Below the pieces are notes generated by a model, which was not told the origin of the DNA, did not search any database, and worked only from the letters and a program-made list of their open reading frames with translations. Below, one piece after another: positions 34,941-45,446 of a stretch of DNA of 48,932 nt. Each line of letters starts with the position of its first letter. The first letter of the stretch is position 1. Source of the stretch: a virus (lineage: Duplodnaviria > Caudoviricetes); the IMG/VR virus record IMGVR_UViG_3300025534_000012, positions 1-48,932 of that record; one strand, 5' to 3'. A program made the translations under genes and the position numbers.

Positions 34941-35933
34941 TCAAACCGCCTCCTTTGCGCGAATCTCCTTAATTTGCGCCAACGCCGACACCGGCCCCGC
35001 CTTCTGCCAATCCGGCAAACTCGAATGTCTTATGCGTCTGACTTGCCGTTCTAAATCCGCCACTTCTTCGTCGCTTAAATCGAGCGCGCACGCCGTTTTA
35101 TAGTTGTTGAAATTCCATTTCCACAGGTCGAGCACAGGCGGCCGCCCCGTTTCCACCGCGTCAAGCACATCCGCGAACTTATCGAAAAGTGCCAGTCGAT
35201 CGGCCTCCGTAATATTGATGTAAAACGCGCGGATGTCGGGATTTTTCGCGTATTTATCGTCGTCGATGACCCAACCGTCTTTTGCCGCATTTACGTAAAG
35301 AATCACGTAATGGTCAACGCCATACATTGCGCTATAAGCCACGACTTGGCGCGCGTGATCCTCCTTCGGATGGCGCAATTTATAAAGCGACGTTTGCGCC
35401 GCGCTCGTCTGTTTCGATTTTATTTCGAGGCCCACGCGGATAACTTCGCCGTCGTCCGTTGTGTATCGCATGATGCCGTCGGGCGTTCCGTAAAGATAAA
35501 ACGTATGACCGCGATGGGTAACTTCGTGGTTCTTTTTCGCGAAGTCCTCGAACATTGGCCGACCGTCGGGCGTGCGCTCGAATACGAAGCGCGGCGGATT
35601 ACCCGTTACTTTTTCGAAGTGTTTTTCGATAAACAAAATGTCGCGCTGAATGAGGTCGCCAATTGCCGTGCCTAAACGCGTCCAGCGGCCTCTATACGGT
35701 GGCTGACCGGTAACGTCCTTCTTCGCACCTTTCGCTTTGACGTACAATTCGCGCGGGCAACTGTTAGCGGCCGACGGCGAGAAGTACGGTCGTTTCGGGA
35801 AAACAACCGGCGGGTCTGCGTACCACCGGTGAATCTGCGCGTCGAGCTCGTTATCCCACGTTTCCGGGCGTGAATGCCATTCGTCGAGCATCGCGATGAA
35901 ATCGCCTTCTATTTGCGCTCCTAGATTCGTCAA
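34941..35933 (-). CDS. PD-(D/E)XK recombination nuclease
   Basis: SPS...CPRELY, GTPDG, EIKSK, QVVAY. Confidence 0.8.
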   Translation of the reverse strand: MTNLGAQIEGDFIAMLDEWHSRPETWDNELDAQIHRWYADPPVVFPKRPYFSPSAANSCPRELYVKAKGAKKDVTGQPPYRGRWTRLGTAIGDLIQRDILFIEKHFEKVTGNPPRFVFERTPDGRPMFEDFAKKNHEVTHRGHTFYLYGTPDGIMRYTTDDGEVIRVGLEIKSKQTSAAQTSLYKLRHPKEDHARQVVAYSAMYGVDHYVILYVNAAKDGWVIDDDKYAKNPDIRAFYINITEADRLALFDKFADVLDAVETGRPPVLDLWKWNFNNYKTACALDLSDEEVADLERQVRRIRHSSLPDWQKAGPVSALAQIKEIRAKEAV

Positions 35934-41123: not shown

Positions 41124-41183
41124 TTGCCCGCGACAAGCCGCAAACGTTCGCGTTAACGTTCGCGACCTGTCGCCGGCGGGCAA
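41124..41183 (-). other. long RNA hairpin directly after cas12f
   Basis: About 26-bp stem that closes through G.U pairs only in the minus-strand transcript. Confidence 0.6.
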
Positions 41184-41188
41184 TGACG

Positions 41189-42469
41189 TCAATCCATTGC
41201 CGCAAGCTGCGCTTGTTGCGATTCTATGCGCGCTTTTATCATCGACTCAATTCCGGGCGTTGCGATATTTCGCGCGGCGTTGTAGTCGGCATTCGTTTTG
41301 AATCCGCAAAACTGGCAATGAAATTCCGCTTGTGTTTTCCGGTTGCCTTCCGCAATGTGTCCGCACTCCGAACACCGTTGCGACGTATATTTCGGTTCGA
41401 TCATCCGTACTTCGATTCCAGCCTCTTTCGCCTTATACGCGATTTTTTGTTGTAAATCGTAATATGGCCACCGTTTCAAAAACGTGCTATTCGCGCTGAT
41501 TCCGTCGAGTTTTTCGAGTTGAATAACGCCGCAACCGTGTTTAACCGCTTGCTCAACGATAAACTTCGAGTACTTATGATTCGTAGTTTTGCGGAAATCC
41601 TCGACACGCCTGCGTAATTTTTCAATTGGCTTTAACCGCGTTACTCGACCGTGTCCGCGACGACCGTGTCCGCAATACTTGCCTTGCCGTAACAATTCGG
41701 TGCGCCTGCGCTCAATTCTGCGCCGGAATTCGCTAATTTCGCTACCGCCAATAAAATGTCGCTCGGGGCTATCGTTGAACGCGATCACGGCTGCGTTTAC
41801 AACGCCTAAATCAACGCCCATCACTTTCGACTTATCGCGCTGAACTTCGTCAACTTCGTGTGAGTACGCAAGCATTAGGTAATATTTCGTTTTAACCTTC
41901 GCGATTTCGCTGTCGCACATTTTGTATTCACCGCTTATAATTCGGTCGAGTATGACGTTCGCACCCGAACCTGTTCGTAAGGTTACGTCAACTTGCGTGT
42001 CAGTTCCGCGTTCCTTAGCGCCTTCCTTCGACAGTAACGATAGTTTGCAAGCGTAAGTTTTCGCATTGATTCGCACTAGCGACTTTATCGATTGGGCGCG
42101 GATTGGGAACGATCCATCACGTCTATATGACGGAATAGAAATTTCTCCACGAAGTATTTTCGGTTTGTCGTTTTTGAATTTCTTCACCGATTCGTTTATT
42201 GCCGTATCGACAATGGATGACCCTACAAATACCGCTAACCCTTTTATTTGTCCGTTTATATCCGCGGGTAACCCCTTGCCCAGTATATCTTTTTCCTTCG
42301 GATACTCTCCGAATCGGTCGTTATACCCGAACGAAAATTGTTGCCAATCCCACGCTAATTGAGTTGCTTTATTTTTAATCCGCCAAATGGCGTATTGAAT
42401 GTCGTGTAGTAAATTGTATAAATCCTTATCGTAAGCGATTTCGTATCGCATTGTTTTCGTTATTTTCAC
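41189..42469 (-). CDS. cas12f1: Cas12f1-like (type V-F) RNA-guided nuclease, 426 aa
   Basis: GGAGG RBS and GTG at 42469; NKATQLAWDW...GEYPKEKDILG, LRQGKY...GHGR, NHKYS, WPYYDLQQKI resemble AsCas12f1 as I recall it; RuvC D (GVDLG), E (IQLEK) and D (NADYNAA) plus the zinc finger are intact. Confidence 0.88.
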   Translation of the reverse strand: MKITKTMRYEIAYDKDLYNLLHDIQYAIWRIKNKATQLAWDWQQFSFGYNDRFGEYPKEKDILGKGLPADINGQIKGLAVFVGSSIVDTAINESVKKFKNDKPKILRGEISIPSYRRDGSFPIRAQSIKSLVRINAKTYACKLSLLSKEGAKERGTDTQVDVTLRTGSGANVILDRIISGEYKMCDSEIAKVKTKYYLMLAYSHEVDEVQRDKSKVMGVDLGVVNAAVIAFNDSPERHFIGGSEISEFRRRIERRRTELLRQGKYCGHGRRGHGRVTRLKPIEKLRRRVEDFRKTTNHKYSKFIVEQAVKHGCGVIQLEKLDGISANSTFLKRWPYYDLQQKIAYKAKEAGIEVRMIEPKYTSQRCSECGHIAEGNRKTQAEFHCQFCGFKTNADYNAARNIATPGIESMIKARIESQQAQLAAMD

Positions 42470-42499
42470 TTGTAAAACCTCCAAAATGTTCGCTTTAGG

Positions 42500-42661
42500 T
42501 TCGCACCACGCGCCTCTATACGTTGTGACTTCGCACATTGAACGCCGGCCTCGGGAATTATGCTCGCTTCTCATACGCCAATACACGTTTTGACGTCTTC
42601 AGACAATGAAAACGCGGTTAAAAGTTCTTCTCGCTTCTCATACGCCAATACACGTTTTGAC
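42500..42661 (-). CRISPR. mini CRISPR array: two identical 32-nt repeats, one degenerate repeat, two spacers (35 and 33 nt)
   Basis: GTCAAAACGTGTATTGGCGTATGAGAAGCGAG at 42661-42630 and 42594-42563; degenerate copy from 42529 matches 17 of the first 23 nt. Confidence 0.85.
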
Positions 42662-42677
42662 TGCGTAATGACCAGCG

Positions 42678-42745
42678 ATTTATTGCGTATGATTTACCTG
42701 AGCGCCGTTAGGCCTCGGTTTAAGGACGGCGAGTCGCCCTATTCG
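42678..42745 (-). ncRNA. compact tracrRNA-like scaffold
   Basis: Anti-repeat UCAUACGCAAUA (42692-42681); 5' hairpin loop CUCGC is complementary to the repeat 3' end GCGAG. Confidence 0.75.
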
Positions 42746-42759
42746 TTTGACCGCGCCGC

Positions 42760-42858
42760 TTATTTCCAGCGCTCCGTCAGCTTGCGGTCAATTTCGGCAT
42801 AAACATAAGCCGCCGCGATCATGCCGACGATGGTTAGTACGATGACTGGCACGTTCAT
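42760..42858 (-). CDS. 32-aa single-TM peptide
   Basis: GGTGGTG RBS; MNVPVIVLTIVGMIAAAYVYAEIDRKLTERWK. Confidence 0.5.
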   Translation of the reverse strand: MNVPVIVLTIVGMIAAAYVYAEIDRKLTERWK

Positions 42859-43216: not shown

Positions 43217-43867
43217 TTAACGCGCAAGCAAATAGTCGCGGTGGCTACCGTACTTTTGCCGATCGAAATGGCCTGCCAGCTTTTCGATGCTGCGTTTAAC
43301 TTGCATATGGTGCAGTCCGAGTTTTTTACCGATTGCCGTCGGTTTGTACGGGCTGTCATCCTCGAGGATCGCTTTGACGATTGCCGTCGTCTTAGCGTCC
43401 ATGTTCTGCGTGAGGAAGTCGATCAGTTGCCGCTGGTCGGCTTCCGTTTTCTTTCGTAACACCTCGGTTGCCGCCGAGTTGTCGGTTTGACTTGCATTGT
43501 TGACCGCTATTTCAAACGGTGTTATCGAATCGTCGCCAAAATCGTGTCCTTCGGGAAACCCGAGCTCACATTCGAGGATTTCGTGTTGCCGTCGTCTTTG
43601 TCGGCGTTTATACAATGTCGCTCTTCTATATCTAAGTGCTTTGTTGAAATACAACTCGAAGTTATCGCCGTTAAAAAGCTCAATGCATTCTAACAACGTA
43701 TCTTCGTACAAGGCGCGTGTCTCGTGTTCATCGGCACGCAAAGACTTCGCGACTTTTCCGTAGTAATCCGCATGTCTTTCGATCAAATAACGGTAAATCT
43801 CGTTAAAATCGCTGTTACTTCGTGTTTCGCGGTACCGAAGCACTAAATCATCGATATTCAATTTCAT
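43217..43867 (-). CDS. sigma-70/ECF-like transcription factor
   Basis: Region-2-like N-terminus (FNEIY...LLECIELF...FELYF) and C-terminal HTH (TAIGKKLGLHHMQVKR). Confidence 0.65.
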   Translation of the reverse strand: MKLNIDDLVLRYRETRSNSDFNEIYRYLIERHADYYGKVAKSLRADEHETRALYEDTLLECIELFNGDNFELYFNKALRYRRATLYKRRQRRRQHEILECELGFPEGHDFGDDSITPFEIAVNNASQTDNSAATEVLRKKTEADQRQLIDFLTQNMDAKTTAIVKAILEDDSPYKPTAIGKKLGLHHMQVKRSIEKLAGHFDRQKYGSHRDYLLAR

Positions 43868-44092: not shown

Positions 44093-44236
44093 TTAGGATC
44101 CGCTTCCACCACTTCCGCCGCCCGGATCACTAGTTATTTTTACTTGTGTGGCAGCGTTTTTGTCATTTTGTGTTATACCAACGAAAGAACTTGTAACGAT
44201 TAGTCCTAACAACAATGCAATAATCACCTTTTTCAC
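44093..44236 (-). CDS. aimP: arbitrium pro-peptide, 47 aa (absent from the ORF track)
   Basis: MKKVIIALLLGLIVTSSFVGITQNDKNAATQVKITSDPGGGSGGSGS; signal peptide plus DPGG; immediately downstream of aimR. Confidence 0.85.
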   Translation of the reverse strand: MKKVIIALLLGLIVTSSFVGITQNDKNAATQVKITSDPGGGSGGSGS

Positions 44237-44249
44237 GTCATGTTCCCCC

Positions 44250-45446
44250 CTATTTGAATGTTAAATTTTTAAGCGCAATTTCTGCGATCGTTCCCCAATT
44301 TCCACCAAATTTTAGTAAATCTCGATGTACTAGATTCGCGTAAAACTTTAAACCTGAGTTAATGAATGTGATTAACGATTCATAAAGCAGCACTGGGTCA
44401 TCTAATGCTAATGCTTTGTAATACTGTTTAAACACGGACATGCCTTGTTCCTTAACAGCTTGTTCAATCAATTTTAACGCTTTTTGTTTATCACCCCACC
44501 TTGCCTCCAAGTGCGCAATCTCGGAGATGTCGCTCGTTTTTATTGTTTCTAGTTCCTGGCCATGAACTATTTTCGCGAACACCATATCTTGTTCTTTGAC
44601 TATTTTAGCAGATTCTGTACGACCGTCCAATAATAAAAGATCGTAGTATTGTTTGAAGTAATTCATGGTAGCATCATAGTCATCGAACAGATATGAGTTC
44701 CCTATTGTATAATACGAATGAACTTTAAAAATCGCACAAATATCAGAATCGATAACTCTTTTTGCCAATTTTCTAGCTTTTTTGAAGTCACTATATACAT
44801 TCAAGGCTACGGTCGCCTTAATTTCGGTAAATCTAACCTTATATGAGTTTAGTATAAAATCATCTTCACAATCCAATTCATCAAACAGCGTCTCAGCTTC
44901 TCTTAGAATACGTTCCATGTGCGAGAATTCTTTTTTATGCTGAAGGATAAGGCATTTGATCGATTTTAACAATAATTTTGAGCAAACGCGTGAAGGGATA
45001 GTGTGTTCAATATCGTAAAAAACATCGTCAAAATTCCTTCTGGTTTGTTGATACCTCATAACTAGACTATATACCTTAGCGAGTTCCTTGTTTTCTTTAT
45101 TACCTTCCATAAGTTGGTTTTCAATTATCTTGTCCAAAACATCAAGAAAACGAGCTGTAGAACAGTACTCCATCGCTTCTCTGATTATGTACGGTTTTTC
45201 TGTCTCTAGGACTAAGTTACAAATTTCATACATCAATTCCAGCTCTTTATGCGGACATAAAAAACGAATGAGTTTGATGATCTTATCTAGGTGAAGCATT
45301 TTATCGCCATTCCTAAATCTTGTCACTTCGCTTGGCGTTACGTGCATTATTTTCGCGATTATGTTATTCTTTAGTGTGGTATCATGAGCAATCTCATAGT
45401 TTTCGATTTCGGTTTCGATAATTTTCACGATCGAATTTAGTGGCAA
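44250..45446 (-). CDS. aimR: arbitrium peptide receptor (HTH + TPR, RRNPP family)
   Basis: N-terminal HTH, REAMEY, ELAKVY, TPR-like helices, 398 aa, followed by a peptide gene. Confidence 0.85.
   Translation of the reverse strand: MPLNSIVKIIETEIENYEIAHDTTLKNNIIAKIMHVTPSEVTRFRNGDKMLHLDKIIKLIRFLCPHKELELMYEICNLVLETEKPYIIREAMEYCSTARFLDVLDKIIENQLMEGNKENKELAKVYSLVMRYQQTRRNFDDVFYDIEHTIPSRVCSKLLLKSIKCLILQHKKEFSHMERILREAETLFDELDCEDDFILNSYKVRFTEIKATVALNVYSDFKKARKLAKRVIDSDICAIFKVHSYYTIGNSYLFDDYDATMNYFKQYYDLLLLDGRTESAKIVKEQDMVFAKIVHGQELETIKTSDISEIAHLEARWGDKQKALKLIEQAVKEQGMSVFKQYYKALALDDPVLLYESLITFINSGLKFYANLVHRDLLKFGGNWGTIAEIALKNLTFK

Follow-up and report, generated by a model that had tools for sequence, protein, structure and literature searches.

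A minimal Cas12f1 cassette in an Mgbh1-like Bacillales phage, with guides probably directed against satellite-like islands and sibling phages

In a stretch of phage DNA of 48,932 nucleotides (IMG/VR record IMGVR_UViG_3300025534_000012; this whole stretch is called the window below), two CRISPR spacers lie beside the gene of a small Cas12f-like protein, and none of the 14 neighbouring proteins scanned matches the cas1/cas2 family. The locus bears on an open question, namely what purpose the adaptation-less Cas12f loci of phages serve and how they gain spacers. We consider it probable that the two spacers are guides of a minimal Cas12f1 cassette of the phage, likely cutting satellite-like islands and sibling phages at a predicted 5'-TTC, and likely supplied with spacers by borrowed type I-C adaptation. 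In the mechanism that we propose, the tracrRNA, the array and Cas12f1 would together carry out RNA-guided cutting of small satellite-like islands and of sibling-phage DNA, the cuts would fall next to the predicted 5'-TTC, and new spacers would be written by the Cas4-Cas1-Cas2 proteins of a host type I-C system; we infer that the cassette is expressed and cleaves.

Anatomy of the cassette and its carrier phage

The window, a phage contig, carries genes for head and tail together with polA, a helicase, a primase, RuvC and AimR. Among named phages, Bacillus phage Mgbh1 has the closest polA and Cas12f, and the closest named terminases come from Bacillus species (78%); the carrier belongs to the Mgbh1-like phages of Bacillales and has AimR. 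AimR (Pfam PF22871) and an AimP-like signal-peptide ORF ending in ...KITSDPGGGSGGSGS (44096-44242 and 44250-45446, both on the minus strand) form a pair with 36% GC, against 48.5% for the window. Because no integrase was identified in the window, the label "temperate" rests on AimR and on the sibling prophages. The cassette itself is accessory: it measures 1.6 kb (41178..42768), and contigs from runs X2 and X5 bypass it, with joints 41177->42769 and 41177->42781. It is absent from this slot in all 61 helicase-found sibling loci that span primase to polA (0/61), one of which carries a 128-aa fragment elsewhere.

All parts of the system lie on the minus strand. The predicted tracrRNA (42662..42740; 79 nt, or about 80) directly adjoins the first repeat and doubles as the leader. 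It is followed by the leader-proximal repeat 1 (42630..42661, 32 nt), the leader-end spacer 1 (42595..42629, 35 nt), repeat 2 of the same sequence (42563..42594), spacer 2 (42530..42562, 33 nt), and a degenerate terminal repeat (42498..42529) that is identical to repeat 1 at 18 of 32 positions in a count by eye. The two spacers are real, as a preliminary description of the locus had claimed: the letters it quoted are exact on the minus strand, flanked by 32-nt repeats. Downstream of the degenerate repeat follows a GTGCGAA..AAGCGAACAT..GGAGG-like stretch, which is shared with the phage loci L089, L090 and L175. The array is directly upstream of cas12f1 (41189..42469), whose likely start is the GTG at 42469, preceded by GGAGG and giving a protein of 426 aa; longer gene models (an ORF call of 465 aa and the 449-aa database protein P0002) extend through spacer 2. 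The order tracrRNA, array and cas12f is kept in L089, L090/L006 (Mgbh1), L091 and L175 with other repeats and spacers, and since the layout recurs in this way in related phages, the array is not a product of chance.

The predicted tracrRNA consists of a first stem common to relatives, with a loop (ACTCGC) able to base-pair to the 3' end of the repeat (GCGAG), a second stem, and a long anti-repeat (TCATACGCAATA, 42692-42681) in the tracr region abutting repeat 1. The loop pairs with the repeat as CTCG:CGAG in the window, L089, L091 and L175, as CTTG:CAAG in L092, as TTCA:TGAA in L001 and L096, and as TTTC:GAAA in L177, so that four pair sets change in step across the relatives. We therefore regard the guide-sense orientation that the preliminary description assigned to both spacers as supported. 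Of 21 loci, 12 showed the hairpin, and the loop of L097 has no clear pairing. The computed tracr-repeat duplex has a free energy of -18.6 kcal/mol, the long pairing having two possible registers. A short repeat/anti-repeat pseudoknot together with a long anti-repeat is described for the Cas12f1 tracrRNA in the available text of PMC11246509, and the loop/repeat pairing in the window matches that short pseudoknot. An Rfam search gave no match. A promoter scan gave one match where 2.4 were expected, with no sigma-70 promoter found upstream of the cassette. Upstream of the cassette lies a sigma-factor-like ORF (43217-43867, minus strand; labelled by inspection, with no Pfam or PHROG hit), which could drive expression of the cassette.

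For the effector, Pfam reports a Cas12f1-like_TNB match and a weak OrfB_IS605 match below the cut-off, while the PADLOC profiles give Cas12f at 1.7e-132 and Cas12u3 at 1e-126. Its closest solved relatives are the AsCas12f1 structures, with homology over the full length (E~1e-112) and the D-E-D residues aligned. The RuvC residues D220, E319 and D395 and the Cys4 zinc finger are intact, and they are invariant in 33 homologues. In a FastTree phylogeny, the window, L089, L090, L091 and L175 form one clade with support 0.998. By sequence and anatomy, the system can be assigned to type V-F1 (Cas12f1), because it combines a full-length Cas12f1 homologue within the 400-500-aa range, an intact RuvC site and zinc finger, an adjacent array, and tracr pairing. 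Two other classes were rejected: a nuclease-dead, sigma-linked Cas12f regulator, given the intact RuvC residues, the presence of an array and the much greater distance of structure 9N9C (E=2e-18); and an IS200/IS605 TnpB with a 3'-overlapping omega RNA and no array, as here a tracrRNA and an array lie upstream instead.

Targets of the two spacers and of those in sister phages

The proposed comparison of the two spacers with genomes (here, sampled Bacilli among others), phages and plasmids returned no credible protospacer for either, and the earlier statement that the window holds no full protospacer is borne out, the best ungapped matches being 20/35 for spacer 1 and 22/33 for spacer 2. In INPHARED the best matches were 21 and 23 nt (E>=1), and the array had no match in PLSDB. 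Exact 5' 18-mers gave zero (spacer 1) and one (spacer 2) matches in IMG/VR; the latter, in record L005, was dismissed as chance (20 nt, flank GATAT, in DNA of 57% GC, 24/33 overall). The 3' 18-mers and 16-mers gave four and eight matches there, with best overall agreement of 22/35 and 26/33, and were rejected for mismatched seeds. A 23-mer of spacer 1 retrieved from JGI metagenomes the array itself in two records and nothing else, and a 22-mer of spacer 2 retrieved nothing from GTDB. For both spacers, no credible target emerged from 91 genomes searched by pattern with three mismatches allowed, nor any target from five virus records or from two weak searches of 61 genomes (a 1.7-kb query, five candidates scored each); BLAST of 401, 91 and 12 genomes gave weak matches in housekeeping genes, which were rejected. 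One lead came from a frame of spacer 2, RTLNAGLGNYG, which scored 35 against an integrase of genome G489 (P<0.005 among 47 frames). It was dropped because the DNA agrees at only 18/33 positions, the flank is CGC, and homologues keep another motif. A 20/33 match of spacer 2 to a tRNA-Leu end is at null level. Runs X2, X3 and X4 did not cover the spacers and X7 did not cover the array, from which nothing follows.

We then turned to the four sister phages L089, L090 (Mgbh1), L091 and L175 and mapped their 15 spacers against a target set in which islands and sibling phages were over-represented, a bias towards these two classes, although the first match came from unbiased whole-genome BLAST. That match is of the leader-end spacer 1 of L175, which agrees at 30/33 positions (E=1e-6; two of the three mismatches synonymous) with a 17.4-kb element on the same chromosome, G629. 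The element is bounded by a 64-bp att repeat of a tRNA-Leu end. Its genes include those of integrases, an AEP primase, a scaffold-like protein and a tape-measure protein, and none of the 15 ORFs scanned in it matches a capsid, portal or terminase in PHROG. L089 spacer 3 agrees at 30/34 positions with the primase gene of another element of this family, which is 13.4 kb long and sits at a tRNA-Gly of G489 (flank TTC, peptide 11/11, sole match in five genomes, E=5e-6). L091 spacer 1 agrees at 25/36 positions (flank TTC) with the homologue, in genome G371, of the gene targeted by L175 spacer 1; its peptide matches a family member at 11/13 residues, and eight of its ten top matches fall in one column. 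These three spacers of 15 map firmly to a single family of satellite-like islands (13-17 kb), tRNA-integrated where checked. A fourth firm assignment, of L175 spacer 4, is to a terminase motif of sibling phages (29/36 and 28/36; 27/36 in its own prophage), with a peptide score of 54 against null scores of 29-41. Two further assignments are moderate: L089 spacer 2 to an island gene (25/35, above 150/150 shuffles, 8/11 aa, flank TAC), and, by peptide only, L175 spacer 2 to the integrase motif RVSPHTCRH. For 9 of the 15 spacers, both of Mgbh1's included, neither a firm nor a moderate target was found. We rejected a 21/36 match of L175 spacer 4 in L341 and left out two matches based on peptide only, that of L091 spacer 4 to an integrase N-terminus and that of L091 spacer 2. 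In INPHARED, the arrays of L089, L091 and L175 gave nothing beyond E>=1, and in PLSDB the L175 array had no match.

The flanks of the mapped protospacers are TTC, TTC, CTC (the G629 resident), TTC/TTT (26 and 12 of 38 L175 spacer 4 loci, respectively) and TAC (L089 spacer 2). The CTC and TAC flanks can become TTC only via a synonymous codon. From these flanks, we predict a 5'-TTC PAM. The T-rich 5' flank looked for in the preliminary description stands beside several of the relatives' protospacers as TTC or TTT; CTC and TAC depart from TTC. The mismatches and the CTC flank may explain how island and prophage coexist in G629. In L091 (5481-5900), an A follows five of six repeat copies, so that its repeat may be 33 nt long and its PAM register off by one.

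On the analogy of the sister phages, we think it fairly likely, somewhat more so than the reading as a whole, that spacers 1 and 2 share the target class of the relatives' spacers, and from their gene content and integration sites the islands would be true satellites of this phage family. The strongest rival is that the cassette acts mainly against complete rival phages or plasmids, as superinfection exclusion, with both spacers in that class and satellites secondary. The terminase target of L175 spacer 4 fits this, as does the occurrence of the L175 spacer 2 motif in sibling-phage integrases too. However, islands account for three of the four firm assignments, spacers 1 and 2 do not rise above the null level in 4.7 Mb (both strands) of loci taken mostly from sibling phages, the INPHARED searches with L089, L091 and L175 gave nothing beyond E>=1, and the PLSDB searches with the window and L175 gave no matches; we regard this rival as a serious contender that is nonetheless rather unlikely.

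A family of integrative islands is seen in L311 (10315-20000) with L312 (1-7724), L363, L364, L365, L366 and L367. They carry an integrase, an HTH replication protein, an AEP primase (in two), a tape-measure protein (in some), and a protein of about 250 aa of no known kind (an Atlas cluster of 1337, no Pfam). The island of G434 has an AimR homologue of its own.

Spacer turnover and acquisition

Spacers do turn over among relatives, a point that the preliminary description had raised. All 17 spacers of the clade (window and four sisters) differ from one another. Both spacers of the window recur in a record that is 99.98% identical to it. A soil contig of a near-identical phage from run X5 has an identical spacer 2 and a single repeat that continues into the tracr side, apparently without the leader-end spacer 1; its depth is 2.5, collapse of the 32-nt repeats in the 31-mer graph is possible, and loss is as possible as gain.

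Comparison with host CRISPR repeats had been suggested as a way to recognize borrowed adaptation, and its outcome is divided. The clade has 32-nt repeats and spacers of 33-37 nt, and host type I-C arrays have 32-nt repeats and spacers of 33-36 nt, the array of G204 being confirmed as type I-C by Csd1. Aligned without gaps, the clade repeats agree with three host I-C repeats at 15-19/32 positions (P=0.0002-0.019). With the ends fixed, the similarity holds for the four relatives (P<=0.01) and is marginal for the window (P=0.066; 0.019 unfixed), whose repeat is the least I-C-like (15/32) and ends in GCGAG where host repeats end in GAAAT. The I-C Cas4 of B. halodurans processes at GAA-3', which equals 5'-TTC (available text of PMC6519985). 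This species, a model for I-C adaptation, is the reported likely host species of Mgbh1 and holds spacers against it (available text of PMC5135824 and PMC6519985). Borrowing of host type I-C adaptation is thus plausible, since repeat length, spacer lengths and TTC fit. Nevertheless, we judge the case for it to be evenly balanced, because Cas1 is scarce (none in G629, none in five genomes of its family, present in 2 of 61 genomes of another family), G489 has a system with 30-nt repeats and 34-40-nt spacers, the 3' end of the window repeat diverges, and a leader-end CG is found in four of four host I-C leaders and in 5 of 11 phage loci. We take the 30-nt-repeat system of G489 to be I-B-like. The more distant Cas12f of L177 (genome G701) has a 30-nt repeat very close to that host repeat, which suggests that the type of host adaptation suited to a Cas12f array differs between Cas12f lineages.

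Spacers could alternatively be captured without a host Cas1, by a Cas4-like nuclease of the phage together with recombination genes, or by exchange of cassettes between phages. A Cas4-like gene indeed lies 5.3 kb from the cassette (34941..35933, minus strand; phrog_1706, PADLOC Cas4 at E=1.4e-5), Cas1 is absent from G629 and most sampled Bacillales, and the repeat 3' end is unlike host repeats. However, the gene is also present in 16 helicase-found sibling loci, while the cassette occupies the slot in 0/61; it is not linked to the cassette and is a candidate for spacer capture in this rival. As TTC and the lengths of repeats and spacers are consistent with type I-C, and the leader-end difference of the X5 contig fits polarised Cas1 integration, we hold Cas1-free capture to be unlikely.

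Taken to its furthest, our reading would be that Mgbh1-like Bacillales phages use a 1.6-kb Cas12f1 as a programmable anti-satellite weapon against undescribed tRNA-integrated satellites with scaffold and tape-measure genes, that the tracrRNA of about 80 nt, transcribed as a fusion with the first repeat, makes a natural single guide of the newest spacer, and that host class 1 (I-C) adaptation writes this class 2 array and has thereby shifted the PAM of Cas12f to TTC. We offer this combination as possible, though doubtful as a whole.

Regulatory and transposon readings, and known systems

The preliminary description had noted MKTRLKVL in the reverse complement of spacer 1 and, as a speculation, likened it to the start of an XRE repressor. 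The reading exists and belongs to one of three stop-free frames, and the resemblance to a repressor found no peptide support: LQTMKTRLKVL(E) scored within shuffle nulls against sibling-phage proteins, within the null against six satellite-like regions (P=0.155), and within the null against 152 members of one satellite protein family, and the 11 nt 5' of the ATG inside spacer 1 hold no ribosome-binding site. In three of the relatives that were mapped, an in-frame Glu codon of the opposite strand forms the complement of the PAM, and by analogy LQTMKTRLKVL-E would likewise fit an internal coding stretch. A role of the guides in controlling or attacking a gene of the host or of a phage, for instance an XRE repressor to which spacer 1 would correspond, could draw on this peptide and on the sigma-like gene upstream, as sigma-linked nuclease-dead Cas12f regulators exist (available text of PMC10691335). 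Yet the catalytic residues are intact, the 401, 91 and 12 genomes gave no convincing chromosomal match, no host gene is among the relatives' firm targets, and the sigma-like gene also occurs in siblings without the cassette, which leaves this reading very improbable. A last reading takes the locus for the remnant of an IS605 tnpB in which a duplication arose by chance. The description of Mgbh1 ORF53, which names an IS605 element and a 33-bp direct repeat (available text of PMC5135824), and the sub-threshold OrfB_IS605 match might point to it. It is largely refuted by the regular arrays with distinct spacers, the covarying tracr-repeat pairing, the synteny in sister phages and the real protospacers of relatives, and is hardly credible.

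Returning to the reading of the spacers as Cas12f1 guides, the closest effector of solved structure is AsCas12f1 (type V-F1, formerly V-U3; PDB 8J12, 7WJU, 8DZJ), which the window system resembles in full-length homology, in a tracr pseudoknot with long anti-repeat (available text of PMC11246509), and in having no adaptation genes beside the effector. It differs in being carried by a phage, in an array upstream of the gene, in a tracrRNA of about 80 nt abutting repeat 1, in a repeat ending in GCGAG, and in a predicted PAM of TTC instead of NTTR. Cas12 arrays usually lie downstream of the gene; V-F spacers match phages and plasmids, and the greater Cas12f branch is without cas1/2/4 (Altae-Tran et al., available text of PMC10691335). 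In function, the cassette would by analogy work most like Cas12r of Thermus Lalka phages (bioRxiv 10.64898/2026.04.20.719267): the available text of the preprint describes a phage type V effector with a short array and no adaptation genes, spacers matching tRNA-integrated, primase-bearing elements, and a proposed host type I adaptation. As described there, however, Cas12r is a separate TnpB lineage of 564 aa that needs no tracrRNA, has ARG as its PAM and is accompanied by a 29-nt repeat of I-E-like type, whereas the window has a tracr-dependent Cas12f1 with I-C-like geometry in Bacillales; we set the two apart by that description and by the best profiles of our effector being Cas12f. ICP1, according to the same available text, likewise directs a phage CRISPR system (type I-F) against chromosomal satellites, the PLEs, but with a multi-subunit effector and its own adaptation module, compared with one effector in 1.6 kb here. 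The nearest locus of all is gp53 of Mgbh1 (NC_041879.1), which shares the layout, the genomic slot, a 51% identical protein and a 32-nt repeat ending in GCGAG; its spacers differ, and its annotation names nothing beyond an IS605 transposase and a direct repeat. In the open-access literature, bioRxiv supplements excepted, we found no description of Cas12f directed against satellites.

The system itself is of a known type. Its clade now has a defined target class and a testable acquisition model, and offers named test cases: chromosome G629 holds both a prophage cassette and the matched island, and the cultured phage Mgbh1 carries the locus. The cassette also points to a satellite-like family, homologues of the L175 spacer 1 target gene being present in 5 of 221 sampled Bacillales genomes, and it provides a small nuclease whose guide scaffold is predicted to be unusually short and whose PAM is predicted to be TTC.

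Other arrangements of Cas12f-like genes and arrays were seen along the way. In L002/L094 (5400-5905 and 7228-7560), one cas12f has a tracr-like stem and an array on each side, with different repeats. In L115-L117 (7109-7262), Cas12f-like genes stand beside arrays with a 61-nt period and a 28-29-nt repeat that resembles those of type I-E. Many large phage contigs among L133-L168 combine Cas12f-like genes with two or three separate mini-arrays whose repeats differ.
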